Virus record (IMG/VR): IMGVR_UViG_2660237951_000006
Direction: 5' to 3' (one strand)
DNA: 7,744 nt
Source of the DNA: a virus
Taxonomy: Duplodnaviria > Heunggongvirae > Uroviricota > Caudoviricetes
The notes below the pieces were generated by a model that was not told where the DNA came from, ran no database searches, and saw only the letters and a list, made by a program, of their open reading frames with translations. The translations under genes were made by a program, and so were the position numbers. Of the stretch, positions 2,159-7,744 are shown one piece after another (positions within the stretch are counted from its first letter, which is position 1; each line of letters begins with the position of its first letter).

Positions 2159-3377
2159 TGGCGTTATCCTTCTGCTTACCGGCTTTACTGCCATCGGAGG
2201 GTTTCGTGGTCATGTTCATCGGTGTGAGATAGACATCACCACCGGGACGCGGATTCATATCTTCCAGGTCGCGGCAGTCATTGGGAGAGTAAATTCCCCA
2301 GTTAATCCCGGTGGCGTAGGCTTCAAAACGGGACTTCATATCCCCGCGCAGTAACGCCCCGGCGTTAAATTTGGCGTAATAAACGCCCTGCTTACTTTTT
2401 CGTACCAGTCCGGTGTTGATCCGCTGTTCGATGCGGGTCAGATACGGCACCAGTGAATAGTTGATAAATCCCAGCCCCAGCTCTTCGATATTGTTGAAGG
2501 TGGCGCGATCGGTGTTCTGCACCATGTGCAACGGCACCCGGAACAGACGACAGATTTCTTCAAGCTGAAACTTGCGGGTTTCCAGGAACTGGCTGTCCTC
2601 GGCGTTCAGCGCCATCGACTTCCAGTCCAGCCCCATCTCAAGGATCATCGGGCGGTGAGCATTGCCAAGCCCGGTGTGACGCTCCTCAAAATCTTTCTTC
2701 AGGCGCTCATAAGCCTGATCTGACAGCGTCTGCTCTGTACGCAACACACCCGACGTCACCGCGCCATTGCTGAACAGTCTGGCCCCGTGCTCTTCGGTCG
2801 CAGCTGCCAGCGATATTGCCTCGCGGGCATAGGCGATGGGATTCAGCCCCACCAGTCCGTCCAGCGTCAGCGTGCGCACATGCCAGATATCCTCCTGGCT
2901 CAGTACATCCGTGGAGCCATCCGGGAATGTGACCTGATAGATCGGCTCCCAGCTACTGTTAAGCTTCGGTACCACACAGCCGGGATCGACGGGCAGCAGT
3001 TCAGCCACTTCGCCAAATGCTTTCACTTTGTAGGCGTAAAAGTTTCCCCGCAGGCACAGACAGGTGACCACCAGCTCCCAGAACTCCTGCGGCGTCATAT
3101 AGCCATTGGGATGCGTGGAGATCAGTTTATGCAGACGTTCGCCGGTGGCTCTCTGCTTCAGGCTGCCGTTCAGGTGATACAGATTGCAGGGCAACATCCC
3201 GACCGACTCTGCCAGCACTCTGACGCAGGAAAAAACCGCCGTCAGTCGCATGGCCCGCTGACTGCTGATCTGCTTTCCGGTATAGGTGTCGTAGGACAAC
3301 CCGATGGCATCCGCCAGCTCTGCTGGCGTGGTCACCGGTGCGTCACTTTTTCGTTGAAATAATCCCGAAAAGAACAC
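2136..3377 (-). CDS. Portal protein, HK97 family
   Basis: 413-aa ORF directly downstream of the terminase large subunit. GTG start at 3377 is preceded by a strong GGAGG 6 nt upstream. The start overlaps the stop of the upstream mini-ORF (TAGTG). Confidence 0.9.
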   Translation of the reverse strand: MFFSGLFQRKSDAPVTTPAELADAIGLSYDTYTGKQISSQRAMRLTAVFSCVRVLAESVGMLPCNLYHLNGSLKQRATGERLHKLISTHPNGYMTPQEFWELVVTCLCLRGNFYAYKVKAFGEVAELLPVDPGCVVPKLNSSWEPIYQVTFPDGSTDVLSQEDIWHVRTLTLDGLVGLNPIAYAREAISLAAATEEHGARLFSNGAVTSGVLRTEQTLSDQAYERLKKDFEERHTGLGNAHRPMILEMGLDWKSMALNAEDSQFLETRKFQLEEICRLFRVPLHMVQNTDRATFNNIEELGLGFINYSLVPYLTRIEQRINTGLVRKSKQGVYYAKFNAGALLRGDMKSRFEAYATGINWGIYSPNDCRDLEDMNPRPGGDVYLTPMNMTTKPSDGSKAGKQKDNANADETTS

Positions 3378-3559
3378 TATTTACCTCCACCAACAGACAG
3401 CTGTGTACGGTCGAGATATCGCGCTACCAGCCACGACCAGAACAGGCACAACGCCCCGGCAACAACAAACCCCGCCGGGGGATAAATCAGCCAGGCACCA
3501 TACGCCAGCAAAAGCGCCCCCAGCACGCCCACCAGAGGCGCGAGAATCAGCATGATCAT
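3377..3559 (-). CDS. Small hydrophobic protein (60 aa) with two predicted transmembrane helices, inserted between terminase large subunit and portal
   Basis: ATG at 3559 with a GAGGT Shine-Dalgarno 5 nt upstream that overlaps the terminase stop. Its TAG stop overlaps the portal GTG start. Sequence [49 protein letters not shown] gives two hydrophobic segments separated by a PP turn, then a short polar tail. Confidence 0.55.
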
Positions 3560-3570
3560 AATTACCTCAG

Positions 3571-5304
3571 TTAAAGCGAGCGGATCCCATAGGACTCAAT
3601 GTGGTCAGACAGCGTGTCTTCTTTCTCGTACAGCATGGCTCTGCCAACCGCCATAATCAGCGCAACTGCACCGTCAATTTTGTTTTCCGCCTGCTCTTTG
3701 ACGGGTTTCACCACATCATCGTTACCCGGAATGGTTTTGCCGACCACATTGCCGATACACCAGGTCATGATGGGATTGCCATCATGATGAAAGCGCCCCG
3801 ATTCAATTGCCGCTTCCAGCTCTTTCATCGGGTCGGACATGTTGGTGTAGTTCTGAATGATAGTGACGGGATTCAGGTCTTCATCAGCAAGGTCATGTGA
3901 CAACCCGGTCGCCCCGAAGGGGTCGATGGGTGACTCACTGACCGGGCTGATTTTGTTCGCCGCTTTGGCCTCCTCGAGGATGTAGCGATAATCCACCTCC
4001 GCACCATCGGTAACGGTCAGAACGCCCATTTCCACCCATTTCTGAAAGCGTTCGGCTGTCCGGCGATCTTCATTTTTCTCGACGCTGTACACCGTGTCAT
4101 ACGGTACCCAGAAGCGCGGAGCCACACTGTAGTAATGCGTTTTACCGTCAATCTCGCGGGTATAAAGTCGCGCCATGCTGTTCATATCCAGCTTACGCGC
4201 CAGGTCAAAGGCCAGAATGCACGGTTGCCCCTCGAACTGCTCAAGGGTCAGTGATTTATCCTCGCAGCTCTGCCAGCTCACCAGGTTGAAATACGCCGAA
4301 CGCGCCGACACCCAGATATTGAGGTGTTTTGTTTTAAAGACGTTTGCCAGACGGGCGTTATTTTTCGCACGCTGCTGCTGACTTAACAAAAATTCGCGAT
4401 AAACCGACACGCCAATATTCGGGTTAGCTTTTTCCAGCACCTGCGGGTCGGTCCAGTCATCACCTTCATCAACGGTATAGATGATCCCGAACAGTTCATC
4501 GTTGGGCACCGAGCCGTTGAGCATCTCGATGACTTCCCGCCGCTTGTCGTAGCACGGCCCCTCAATGTTGTACCCGGCAGTAGTAATGGCCCACATCAGT
4601 GGCTGACGTCGCGCCCCCATCCCGGTAAGCATCGTGGTGTAAAGCGCATCGGTGGCGTGCTCGTGATATTCATCCACCACCGCACAGTGGGGTGATGAAC
4701 CATCACCGGGGTTACCGATCAGCGGTTCAAACCGCGCGCCATCCTCCGGACGATTCATGTTTGAGGCGTTAACCTCAATCCCGAACGCTTCCGTCAGCAT
4801 GGGTGTGCGTTTACACATCAGTCGCGCCGGGCGAAAGACTTCCCACGCCTGTTTCTCTGTCGTGGCACCGGAATACACTTCCGCGCCAAACTCGTTATCA
4901 CAGGCAAAACAATACAGGGCAACACCGGCAGAGATTGCCGATTTGCCGTTCTTACGGGGGATTTCGGTATACACCTCCCGGAAGCGGCGCAGCCGGGACC
5001 CTTTATTGACCCAGCCAAACGCACAGCAGACCACAAATAGCTGCCACGGCTCCAGCGTGATGGGCATCCTCTTGAATGCCCACTCACCCTTGGTGTGCGG
5101 CAACAGCTGAATAAATTTGGCGGCCCGTTCAGCCAGGTCCTTGTCGAAGCGGTAACGAAACGACTTACTTTTTTCCGCCATCAGGTCATCAAGATGGCGC
5201 TGGCAGGCCTGAATCACAAACTGGCAGGCCACAATCTTTCCGCGCACAACATCACGGGCATACTGATTGGCAGCATTTACGTTGGGGTAAGATTTCCGGC
5301 TCAT
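3571..5304 (-). CDS. Terminase large subunit (ATPase/nuclease)
   Basis: 577-aa ORF. Walker A-like GKS motif ([11 protein letters not shown]) and Walker B-like VVDEYHE in the N-terminal half. The ATG start overlaps the small-subunit stop (ATGA) at 5301-5304. Confidence 0.92.
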
Positions 5305-5795
5305 GACTCGATGATTTTCAGAAACGGGTTAGTGGCTTTCTTCTGCCCCGCCAGGCCAATCAGACGCTGGCGGCTGCTGGGGTCGAGTCCGAGCATTGCC
5401 CCCGTGCTGCTCATCTCGGACTCCTGTTCTTTTTTGGCGGTCAGCTCCGGATTTTTGACCCTGCCGCCCATTGCACCGGTGATGGTGTTGCCCTGTATGG
5501 CAATATTTTTCACGGCACGTCGCCAGAACTCATAGGCCACGCACCACCGCTCAAGCACCGCGAGGTCAGTCACGCACAACAGGCCATGACCGCAGAGTTC
5601 TTTGGTTGTCAGTTGCCACATGATCGTGGCGAGAGGGAGATCTTCTTCAGCGAACCACTCTGGTGGCTCAACACCTTTGATGGGCGTAAAAACAGGTTCA
5701 TCTTTGTTCAGGGCTCGCTTGCCGGGGTTTCCGGCCAGCGCCTTGCGCGCCGTTGGCTTGGGGCGACGCCCGGAACGCCCCGCCGTTCCAGCCAT
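5301..5795 (-). CDS. Terminase small subunit (P27 / HK97 gp1-like)
   Basis: About 164 aa, basic N-terminus, immediately upstream of and overlapping the large subunit. Start placed at ATG 5795, which has AGGAG 8 nt upstream. The track's GTG at 5804 has no properly spaced Shine-Dalgarno. Confidence 0.8.
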
Positions 5796-5845
5796 ATGCG
5801 GCACTCCTGGTTAAATTTCATTTTTCGCGGGTATAAAAAAACGAT

Positions 5846-5920: not shown

Positions 5921-6271
5921 TCACTTTAGCCGTTCACGGGCCGTCTTCGCCTTATGGCACGGCCAGCACAGGCTCTGCAGATTGCTGTCGGCATCTGTGC
6001 CGCCATGCGCTTTAGGAATGATGTGGTCAACGGTTTTCGCCTCACGTACCACACCACCACGCAGACATAACTGACACAGTCCTTTGTCACGCTTGAGCAC
6101 ACGTTCACGGATAACATCCCATTTCGAACCATAACCGCGCTGGTGTCTGGACTGGCCCGGCTTGTATTGCTTCCAGCCTTCACTTTTGTGGCTTTCGCAA
6201 TAGCCTGACGGGTCAGTTGTGGTATGGCGGCAGCCGCGAACACTGCAGGCTTTTGGGGTTCGTGGCGGCAT
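5921..6271 (-). CDS. HNH endonuclease (packaging-associated, HK97 gp74-like)
   Basis: 116-aa ORF with a zinc-binding Cys cluster (CSVRGC...C) and HNH core DHIIPKAHGGTDADSNLQSLCWPCHKAKT. It sits directly upstream of the terminase small subunit, as in HK97-like phages. Confidence 0.88.
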   Translation of the reverse strand: MPPRTPKACSVRGCRHTTTDPSGYCESHKSEGWKQYKPGQSRHQRGYGSKWDVIRERVLKRDKGLCQLCLRGGVVREAKTVDHIIPKAHGGTDADSNLQSLCWPCHKAKTARERLK

Positions 6272-6570
6272 ATGTACTAATCTCCGATTTATCCAAATTT
6301 CACTGCCATAATGCCGACATTCTCTGCCATTATTGGCTCCGTTTATCCGTTAAAAGGGATATCAGTTAAGTTATCCCGTGTAGGGTATAAGCCATTGTCG
6401 AGACCACTCATTGAATGGCCTCTGCAATAACCGATGTCTTTCCATCAGTCCGCCACCACAAAGAATCTTTTTTGCCATAAGGCAGGAGGTTCATCTTTCA
6501 GTGGCTGCCAGTGTTATTTCCCCACTTACTGGCTTGGGTTGCTTCGTGGTACTGCCGTAACTGGTGGTGC

Positions 6571-6590
6571 ACAGATTTAGTTAAATCTGT
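6571..6590. repeat. 20-bp near-perfect palindrome ACAGATTTA-GT-TAAATCTGT (9-bp arms, 2-bp spacer)
   Basis: Read directly: left arm 6571-6579, right arm 6582-6590, exact reverse complements. It lies inside the ~410-bp ORF-free stretch. Confidence 0.5.
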
Positions 6591-6681
6591 TCTCGCCTGA
6601 ACTATCTTTTACATACCCGGATTGTGGGGTGTAAATCACGGTTTCATTATCAAGCCCACCCGTAGATGTGCTTTGGAATGG

Positions 6682-6882
6682 CTACTGGCGGTCATTATGC
6701 TCGTAACGAGATACCGTCTTCCCGTTCTGGTTCATCACGTAGGCGACCTCGCCAGGTTTCAGGAATACATTTTTGTCCATTCCCGATACCGCGATGCTCT
6801 GCTGCCCCGGATTGAACCCTACACTCAACCCGCAATGAATCTCTTCACCGCCACCTGGCGACATTACTTTTACTGTTAACAT
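6682..6882 (-). CDS. Hypothetical small protein (66 aa) between the lysis cassette and the HNH gene; possible moron
   Basis: ATG at 6882 with GGAG 7 nt upstream and a TAG stop at 6682-6684. Same strand as the surrounding operon. No family recognised. An 85-aa plus-strand ORF overlaps it in antisense and was judged less likely. Confidence 0.45.
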   Translation of the reverse strand: MLTVKVMSPGGGEEIHCGLSVGFNPGQQSIAVSGMDKNVFLKPGEVAYVMNQNGKTVSRYEHNDRQ

Positions 6883-6906
6883 GCTTCTTCTCCTGCTTCT
6901 TCTGGG

Positions 6907-6934
6907 AATAAAAAAGCCCGACCGAAGTCAGGCT
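6907..6934 (-). terminator. Rho-independent terminator at the end of the lysis cassette
   Basis: On the minus-strand RNA: 8-bp stem AGCCUGAC/GUCGGGCU (one G-U wobble) with a UUCG tetraloop, then UUUUUUAUU. It starts 19 nt after the Rz stop. The plus-strand version has a C-A mismatch and no trailing U-run, so it is strand-specific. Confidence 0.65.
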
Positions 6935-6953
6935 CTGTTATTTGGGTGACGAA

Positions 6954-7394
6954 TCACTTAAGACACTGCTCTTTGATGTATTCCTGCAAATATCCAACCT
7001 GTTTCGTCACTGTGACGATTCGCTCTCTGAGGGTGAAATAATCCCGTTCAGCGGAGTCAGTAAGTCGGGGGCCGGTAACATCGCCCAGGCCGCCGGTGCT
7101 GGTCGTTCCGTTCGCGGGACAGTTTGCGTTGAGCTGCAGCCGCTTACGGCCAGCAGAAACATCAGCACGGAGACTTTCGATAGTAGCGTTAGCATCAGCA
7201 AGCTCCTTTGTGTATCTGGCGTCGAGTTCTGCTACATCACGTTGACGCTTCTGCATGTCAGCGATTGTGGATGCGGCTTTATCGCGCTGTTCTTTGTAGG
7301 CGATGGCGTTATCACGGTAATGATTAACAGCCCATGACAGGCAGACGATGATGCAGATAACCAGAGCGGAGATAATCGCGGTTACTCTGCTCAT
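6954..7394 (-). CDS. Rz: Rz inner-membrane spanin (i-spanin), lambda Rz-like
   Basis: 146-aa ORF with an N-terminal transmembrane segment ([23 protein letters not shown]) and a coiled-coil periplasmic domain. The N-terminus and the [10 protein letters not shown] motif match my recollection of lambda Rz. The ATG overlaps the endolysin stop (ATGA). Confidence 0.9.
7007..7201 (-). CDS. Rz1: Rz1 outer-membrane lipoprotein spanin (o-spanin), embedded in the +1 frame of Rz
   Basis: ORF lies entirely inside Rz in another frame. Signal peptide with lipobox LAVSGC, a proline-rich mature part, and the C-terminal motif [11 protein letters not shown] shared with lambda Rz1. The true start may be a downstream Met. 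Confidence 0.85.
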
Positions 7395-7744
7395 ACCTCA
7401 ATCTCTCTGACCGTTCCGCCAGCTTCTTTGAATTTTGCAATCAGGCTGTCAGCCTTATGCTCGAACTGACCATAACCAGCGCCCGGCAGTGAAGCCCAGA
7501 TATTGCTGCAACGGTCGATTGCCTGACGAATATCGCCGCGATCAATCATTGGTAAAGCGCCACGTTCTTTAATCTGCTGCAGAGCTACAGCGTCCTGGCT
7601 TTCTGGAGAAAAATCTTTCAGGCCAAGCTGTTTACGGTAAGCATCCCACCAGCGTGAAAGAAGCTGGTAACGTCCGGCAGCTGTTGATTTGAGTTTGGGG
7701 TTTAGCGTGACAAGTTTGCGAGGGTGATCGGAGTAATCAGTGAA
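7391..7744 (-). CDS. R: Endolysin (lambda R-type lytic transglycosylase), 3' portion; the N-terminus lies beyond the window edge
   Basis: My own translation of the minus strand from 7744 gives [117 protein letters not shown], then a stop. This matches my recollection of the lambda R C-terminus almost residue for residue. The track omits it because no start codon is inside the window. Confidence 0.9.

Follow-up and report, generated by a model that had tools for sequence, protein, structure and literature searches.

A small open reading frame (ORF) that sits between the lysis and the packaging genes of a phage raises the questions of whether it is a gene at all, how it would be expressed and what its product would serve. 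Such an ORF was found in a viral DNA of 7,744 nucleotides (nt) (IMG/VR record IMGVR_UViG_2660237951_000006; Caudoviricetes), hereafter the window, where it occupies positions 6682-6882 of the minus strand and encodes 66 amino acids (aa); it is designated ORF66. The results described below show that ORF66 is a genuine phage gene under very strong purifying selection, and that it is the centre of a cassette of ~290 base pairs (bp) (window ~6641-6936, minus strand) composed of an intrinsic terminator, a strong ribosome-binding site, the gene itself and a two-tier hairpin. They lead to the tentative proposal, to which as a joint package somewhat less than an even chance is given, that ORF66 is a promoterless late accessory gene whose product likely binds a conserved host component. 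The observation of the initial annotation was thus confirmed, while its interpretation, a possible moron comparable to lambda bor, was supported in part.

The translation of ORF66 is exactly the sequence quoted in the initial annotation. It belongs to PHROG 3909, the hidden Markov model of which (phrog_3909) aligned its positions 1-63 of 64 with residues 1-63 (E 8.1e-37, 126 bits). A word-indexed search recovered 164 relatives, each at least 65% identical, all of them from Enterobacterales and their phages. When ORF66 was compared with ~50 distinct nucleotide versions by the Nei-Gojobori method, the ratio of nonsynonymous to synonymous substitution rates (dN/dS) was 0.02-0.06, with dS reaching up to saturation, and the summed differences amounted to 324 nonsynonymous versus 928 synonymous. 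The column entropies summed by codon position 1, 2 and 3 were 20.6, 15.9 and 64.9, the third being 3-4 times the others. The PHROG match, the close relatives and the strong purifying selection place ORF66 beyond chance, and the claim that it is a real gene stands. The initial annotation had left room for the opposite, namely that the true feature is the antisense ORF 6622-6879 of the plus strand, or a non-coding element, ORF66 being no gene. The antisense ORF is indeed longer (85 aa) and open in the window, but it has no PHROG or Pfam match, its frame is interrupted by stops in 26 of the 53 distinct homologues, and variation falls on the third positions of the ORF66 frame, which argues against an antisense as well as a non-coding reading. 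This explanation can be considered as already refuted.

The family is well delimited. In its alignment the relatives share an invariant start, MLTVK, and the motif AYVMNxNGKT, and an exhaustive profile search defined a superfamily of proteins of 55-136 aa in which T3, N51, G54 and T56 never vary and M1, K5 and E13 hardly do; the MLTVK start is kept unchanged down to relatives at 30% identity. Searches by tblastn with remote superfamily members led to the same phage groups only. The product had been described initially as unrecognised and not assignable to any family. It is true that no characterised family accommodates it, but it was already a member of PHROG 3909, which carries no functional annotation, and its homologues are annotated as 'hypothetical protein' in many genomes and in all public sources, bar one NCBI record that names a 66-aa member 'FHA'. 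That name was rejected, as no Pfam model supported it and the only match to an FHA domain was that of aprataxin (E 0.43-1). Scans of ORF66 against Pfam (E<=1), NCBIfam and PADLOC gave no match, and those of the remote relatives nothing usable; the PADLOC defence models did not match ORF66 or the relatives P0117 and P0158 either. With the profiles of PDB sequences included, no enzyme or defence family was matched, the poly-ubiquitin hits of the latter being an artefact produced by sums of ~2-bit repeats. A literature search found nothing on ORF66 or the PHROG 3909 family. 

The protein has a mass of 7.1 kDa and an isoelectric point (pI) of 6.7, and its sequence properties bear out the earlier statement that it contains neither a signal peptide nor a transmembrane (TM)-like stretch. 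AlphaFold2, supplied with the family alignment, produced a confident six-strand all-beta model (predicted local distance difference test, pLDDT, 94.7; predicted template modelling score, pTM, 0.80). Foldseek found no convincing structural match to this model in the PDB, and among the viral structures of BFVD it matched only uncharacterised phage proteins (from Av-05, Serbin, ZL19, Rtp and 201phi2-1); hence the predicted fold appears to resemble no solved structure convincingly, and homology and modelling together yielded no characterised relative. T4 Dmd is a phage inhibitor of ~60 aa directed against the RnlA and LsoA toxins. The likeness of ORF66 to this antitoxin (PDB 5hy3_B) is weak and structural only.

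At the 5' end of the cassette, the terminator consists of a stem-loop at 6913-6936, AGAGCCTGAC-TTCG-GTCGGGCTTT, with a T tract that reaches ~6907. The stem ends 30 nt, and the T tract ~24 nt, before the ATG, and this interval is taken up by a conserved leader and the Shine-Dalgarno sequence, in agreement with the initial description of an ORF with a good Shine-Dalgarno placed after a terminator and ahead of the packaging genes. The terminator had been regarded as the one that closes Rz/Rz1. Instead, a GC-rich hairpin with a T tract ends 21-32 nt before the ATG of ORF66 in 40 of 41 distinct upstream contexts, where the background for such a terminator is 1.65% per 80-nt window. It exists in 26 stem/loop versions with at least six different core stems, complementarity being kept by compensatory changes. 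The nucleotide homology between the window and ~90 temperate loci starts inside the 3' arm of the terminator and ends 0-40 nt past the stop codon. Since the homology starts in that arm and the element is present whatever gene lies upstream, the terminator is a specific attribute of ORF66 and not of Rz; its termination activity is predicted. Because alignment by MAFFT put the stem classes out of register, in this hairpin as in that of the 3' end, both were analysed by per-sequence folding. A candidate for the Salmonella small RNA isrJ at 6912-6982 of the minus strand was rejected as most likely a chance match (27.2 bits, below the gathering score of 37; E 0.086); this sub-threshold Rfam match takes in little more than the hairpin of the terminator and the Rz 3' end.

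The leader TTTTTTATTcCCAGAAGAAGCAGGAGAAGAAGC is kept in all temperate loci, and its ribosome-binding region AGGAGAAGC is kept in virulent phages too, the ORF66 copies of which are without a T-tract terminator. A 35-nt leader (AGCCAGAGATGGCAAACyAyAGGAGAAGC) is common to Mydo, of the Vequintavirinae (L004, 2990-3000), and Sugarland, of the Demerecviridae (L003, 2990-3000), and therefore the gene was swapped between virulent lineages together with its translation-initiation region.

A consensus scan restricted to sigma-70 sites detected no sigma-70-like promoter on the minus strand between 6200 and 7450, in line with the initial remark that none is evident between the terminator and the ORF, and expression would therefore depend on read-through. 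The absence of a promoter, together with a terminator of its own directly upstream, suggests that ORF66 is expressed late. This arrangement bears on the possibility that ORF66 is a classical moron, a gene of lysogenic conversion or superinfection exclusion that is expressed by the prophage for the benefit of the host. The moron concept for lambdoid phages was reportedly introduced by Juhala et al. in 2000. A classical moron carries a promoter of its own as well as a terminator downstream, and lysogens often express it, as they do the conversion gene lambda bor. ORF66 shares with such morons the condition of an extra gene that only some of the related prophages carry, within a late operon of otherwise conserved order, bounded by sharp mosaic joints and in the classic slot between lysis and packaging. 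It differs in that no promoter of its own was detected, in that its terminator is upstream whereas the downstream hairpin has no U tract, and in that its composition equals that of its flanks, with G+C contents of 0.50-0.51 (ORF66 0.507, cassette 0.50) versus 0.50-0.52 (Rz 0.522, lysozyme 0.50). Furthermore, the product is a cytoplasmic protein that lacks lipobox, signal peptide and TM segment alike, and obligately virulent phages carry the gene in abundance. A gene without promoter, insulated by a terminator and common in strictly virulent T5-like and Vequintavirinae phages can thus hardly be likened to lambda bor, and a moron of the classical kind is highly improbable. In P22, an 'ant moron' has been discussed (PMC2629481).

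The 3' end of the cassette is formed by the two-tier hairpin, located directly past the stop codon. Its general form is (G/C)CATTA-CA-(9-10 bp stem)-GA-TAATG(C/G), and the copy of the window reads CCATTC-CA-(AAGCACATC TACG GGTGGGCTT)-GA-TAATGA; at -11.3 kcal/mol it is less stable than the majority, for which the value is about -21 kcal/mol. Pairing in the outer helix amounts to 94%, its closing pair shows a GC/CG swap, and the 27 distinct inner segments all fold as helices of 7-10 bp (mean z -4.3 versus shuffles), as is structurally expected of an intercistronic processing hairpin. The inner helix is under-counted, as two stem classes lie one column apart and sliding by -1 scores equally well. 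A covariance model built for the element, R1, recognised the copy at 6641-6684 with 51 bits (E 2e-12) and, with filters off, a second one at 6389-6431 with 22 bits (E 1.7e-4), which is also present in the minimum free energy (MFE) fold. In 0.9 Mb of related loci R1 found 146 copies, almost all on the strand of the late transcript. The family has no Rfam match. Up to four copies occur in series, directly past stop codons (L077, 1631/1963/2275/3021; L079, 5199/5531/5843/6589), and single copies were located in HK620 (L005, 1823-1866) and JEP4 (L006, 590-633). The hairpin also follows at least eight different small gene families of the lysis-packaging zone, while the terminator accompanies 80 of 81 copies of ORF66 and just 2 of 28 other genes followed by the hairpin. 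For this reason the hairpin is a general punctuation of the zone, unlike the 5' terminator, which is specific to ORF66. One of the two exceptions is a second terminator-ORF-hairpin unit in L079 (6349-6631), with a terminator at 6349-6368, an ORF of 61 aa at 6397-6582 (MSFKHELGQVVTVTISEEEGH…) that encodes a small protein different from ORF66, and a two-tier hairpin at 6589-6631.

Phage T7 has intercistronic hairpins that are processed by RNase III. By analogy, and in architecture only, the 3' element would be comparable to them, as it comprises 6 bp, a 2x2 internal loop and a further 9-10 bp, lies between the cistrons of a long polycistronic message, recurs behind several genes and keeps to one strand. 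However, there is no sequence similarity, the helix is shorter than canonical substrates and cleavage is hypothetical. Alternatively, the element could be a recombination linker or a protein-binding site.

The distribution of ORF66 separates the gene from any fixed company. The exact 66-aa protein was indexed in 2,367 sample blocks, and it always follows Q, holin, endolysin and spanin genes and precedes one of four unrelated packaging systems (Nu1/GpA, Terminase_2/6, DUF2280-type and HNH with Terminase_4/TerL), including both cos and headful types. Temperate carriers are lambdoid and HK97-like prophages of Enterobacterales, and in their loci at least 15 types of upstream and at least 29 types of downstream neighbour were counted, so that the accessory hot spot postulated initially between lysis and packaging genes is well founded. 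The same slot recurs for relatives in Hafnia phage yong1 (40% identity) and for P0190 (31%). Presence at the locus is variable. The cassette was detected in 13 of 5,426 complete genomes of Escherichia coli, none of which covered 80% or more of the window between 5900 and 7744, that is, the exact mosaic was not found among them. Close relatives differ in presence or absence of ORF66, and most of those sharing the packaging module are without it. Most matches among sequenced phages correspond to virulent T5-like phages (Demerecviridae) and Vequintavirinae, with 57-80% identity. Most T5-like phages carry the homologue at the place where it is found in T5_ev219 (L108, 29,007-29,201), whereas reference T5 (L119, NC_005859 28,024-28,038) has 13 nt between the gene of tRNA-Met and T5.056 (GrcA-like) and no ORF66; T5 and T5_ev219 are a natural presence/absence pair. 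ORF66 is therefore described as a horizontally mobile accessory gene, with constant cassette boundaries and freely variable flanking genes. A 288-kb 'jumbo' Klebsiella phage and the 74-kb HS37 were discarded as independent lineages, since both have Sugarland-type DNA at the locus, and the label 'RIIB lysis inhibitor' that appeared under one match was discarded as well, the record containing shifted pseudogene coordinates on the opposite strand.

The neighbourhood of the lysis genes suggests a product that is an auxiliary of the lysis module, for instance a cytoplasmic regulator of the timing of holin, endolysin or spanin. ORF66 is found ~72 nt past the spanin genes in all eight annotated contexts of the exact protein, the upstream ORF is Rz or an o-spanin-like lipoprotein in about one third of the IMG/VR loci, the Vequintavirinae copies lie 0.5-2 kb upstream of the spanin pair and remote relatives are placed 1-4 kb downstream of Rz. 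There is also a precedent of small beta-proteins attached to lysis cassettes, the stand-alone SH3 protein (DUF7244) of Drexlerviridae (T1-like) lysis modules, which has been proposed as a lysis component (PMC13164509). Like DUF7244, ORF66 is small, all-beta, devoid of known activity and adjacent to the lysis cassette in phages of Gram-negative bacteria, but it has no Pfam match at E<=1 and no match to the SH3 fold, and it is downstream and not upstream of the cassette. The constant distance to Rz is due to the terminator that the ORF66 cassette itself carries and not to coupling with Rz. Moreover, most loci have a non-lysis gene upstream, among 15 types of neighbour, the types of holin, endolysin and spanin are all variable, and neither a signal peptide nor a TM segment is present in the protein. 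A linkage to lysis was rejected for T5-like phages, since ~15 other genes and a distance of 6 kb separate the homologue from their spanins. Taken together, a role in lysis is unlikely.

A role as a helper of DNA packaging or head assembly, expressed just before the terminase genes, would fit the position of ORF66, which precedes TerS/TerL by 0.1-4 kb in nearly every temperate locus and often HNH by ~375 nt, and that of the remote relatives P0190 and P0136, which likewise lie ahead of terminase genes. Yet the four terminase systems are non-homologous and use cos and headful mechanisms alike, the copies of virulent phages are distant from the packaging genes, most relatives with the same packaging module do without ORF66, and T5 dispenses with it. 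This role is very unlikely.

In the virulent phages the homologues are inside tRNA arrays, with tRNA genes 2-50 nt away (Sugarland, T5_ev219, Mydo, 24-2-1). Two virulent families, unrelated to each other, have tRNA genes beside the homologue on at least one of its sides, and two conserved RNA hairpins enclose the gene in the temperate cassette. ORF66 would thus be bracketed by structured RNAs in both settings, and this would be accounted for if the product were an RNA-directed factor that binds tRNA or mRNA, protecting or modulating tRNAs or late transcripts. In the model, conserved T, K, Y and S residues are predicted to be exposed on beta-strands 1, 5 and 6. The tRNA arrays of T5-like phages are a known counter-measure against tRNA-cleaving defences (PMC10802454). 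Against such a function, the protein is neutral and not basic, neither Pfam nor structure searches revealed a Sm, OB, CSD or KH-like match, and no tRNA genes are near the temperate copies. In addition, the adjacency to tRNA genes may be meaningless, because tRNA arrays generally collect small accessory ORFs and homing endonucleases. An RNA-directed factor is considered quite unlikely, slightly more so than a lysis auxiliary.

The proposal of a late host binder could reconcile these features as follows. In temperate phages, ORF66 would be made only when the Q-modified, termination-resistant RNA polymerase transcribes the late operon, and the terminator would prevent its expression in the lysogen and shield it from other transcription. 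The presence of the product would be undesirable in cells that are uninfected or lysogenic. Selection to exclude it from lysogens is suggested by a terminator that goes with the gene rather than with the locus and that virulent phages lack. The neutral, cytoplasmic, single-domain beta protein of 7 kDa would bind a conserved host component stoichiometrically, as suggested by its conservation across phages that share only their hosts and by the lack of a catalytic motif. Such binding would help to take over the host or to counter one of its responses, rather than contribute to a phage machine. In the RNA, the hairpin at the 3' end would act as an intercistronic processing or stabilising signal, and its constant outer arms could double as a recombination linker for the shuffling of cassettes. 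The remote relative P0258 adjoins GIY-YIG and Tad2-like genes, a weak guilt by association in favour of the proposal.

Several considerations weigh against it. The family is uncharacterised, and we infer its function from anatomy and distribution alone. Such strong conservation is atypical of anti-defence proteins engaged in an arms race and is more readily understood for an essential, conserved host target. Host-takeover and anti-defence functions are mostly early, so that a late gene would be unusual among them. The terminator might just as well protect all of the packaging operon behind it, rather than ORF66 in particular, the promoter scan was confined to sigma-70 consensus sites, and the frequent adjacency to spanin and terminase genes leaves some room for the roles in lysis and packaging weighed above. 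A bolder version, which has a rather low probability as a whole, would make ORF66 the founder of a new fold family of small phage inhibitors, directed at a highly conserved factor of Enterobacterales and, in temperate phages, locked behind a dedicated terminator that only Q antitermination opens, as the product may harm the cell, the hairpins being a hitherto undescribed punctuation system. According to this version, the target could be an essential factor, or else a defence system that responds to late events or is aimed at tRNAs, and the hairpins may be processing signals and recombination linkers that bound exchangeable cassettes of the late operon.

The coordinates of the features are collected in Table 1. 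On the minus strand the order is lysozyme, Rz/Rz1, terminator, ORF66, non-coding gap, HNH, TerS and TerL, followed by the portal, protease and capsid genes. The packaging module of the window is of the HK97 type (HNH-TerS-TerL), and the gap between ORF66 and HNH is ~410 nt long and free of ORFs.

Table 1. Features of the ORF66 locus and its surroundings in the window.
Feature	Position	Strand	Description or support
ORF66 (66 aa + TAG stop)	6682..6882	-	PHROG 3909, six-strand all-beta; ATG 6880-6882, TAG 6682-6684
Shine-Dalgarno AGGAG	6890-6894	-	7 nt from ATG, inside the conserved leader
Intrinsic terminator, 5' cassette end	6907..6936	-	10-bp stem, TTCG loop, T tract (termination predicted)
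Two-tier hairpin, 3' cassette end	6641..6684	-	Per-sequence folding, covariance model R1
Second, divergent two-tier hairpin, in the downstream non-coding block	6389..6431	-	R1 with filters off; MFE fold
Structured non-coding block, context rather than part of the gene	6321..6688	-	Common to P22-like phages
Rz i-spanin, upstream neighbour, end of lysis cassette	6954..7394	-	Pfam Phage_lysis PF03245, E 1.8e-40; phrog_13, E 2e-71
Rz1, embedded in Rz	7007-7201	-	
Lysozyme, upstream of Rz	7391-7744 (window end)	-	
HNH endonuclease, downstream neighbour, first HK97-type packaging gene	5921..6271	-	Pfam HNH, E 2e-16
TerS	5301-5804	-	Pfam Terminase_4, E 6e-20
TerL	3571-5304	-	

The non-coding block 6321-6688 (~360 bp) is 90-98% identical to 204 phage records, mostly P22-like, and contains no ORF. 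It corresponds to the hkbL-hkbM intergenic region of HK620 and is intergenic in JEP4 as well. Its fold has a z of -3.69, with a perfect hairpin at 6571-6590; the block starts with the 3' hairpin of the cassette and ends with two TTATCCC...GGGATAA hairpins (6343-6390). In the window it stands in the place of the DUF2560 gene that follows it in P22-like phages. Paired hairpins of the form TTATCCC-N5-7-GGGATAA were seen in many loci, 20-80 nt past the 3' hairpin of ORF66 (e.g. L022, L001 and L041). In other loci, the first of them overlaps a conserved mini-ORF of seven codons, M(V/D)IPxxG-stop, which starts from the ATG of GATAATG and the equivalent of which in the window is ATG AAA CCG TGA (6636-6647). 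The combination of hairpin and mini-ORF may function as a site in the DNA, as a structure in the RNA or by encoding a leader peptide.

Other small or accessory genes were observed in the carriers. An ORF of 60 aa with two hydrophobic segments lies between TerL and the portal gene of the window (3377-3559, minus strand), and L104 has a 61-aa ORF without Pfam match at the same place. Tad2-like genes (PF11195, the anti-Thoeris family) are located in the head region of E. coli prophages that carry ORF66 (L101, L103 and L105, 13936-14400), and a Tad2-like gene of 271 aa was found 1.3 kb from P0258 (L114, 2029-2844).

ORF66 represents a family that is uncharacterised and occupies a slot of a familiar type. 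Its spread over temperate and virulent phages, its predicted novel fold and the terminator-gene-hairpin architecture raise it above routine; should it have no phenotype, it would be just another conserved hypothetical gene. Few other small genes are common, as this family is at 60-80% protein identity, to temperate lambdoid prophages and to virulent T5-like and rV5-like phages, and the hosts of its carriers are E. coli, Klebsiella, Salmonella and Enterobacter, many of the carriers being candidates for phage therapy. Extreme purifying selection, together with horizontal spread and a late expression that the terminator would lock, makes it a good candidate for a new host-directed phage effector. 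Moreover, the flanking elements provide a concrete model for the insulation, processing and shuffling of accessory genes within late operons.

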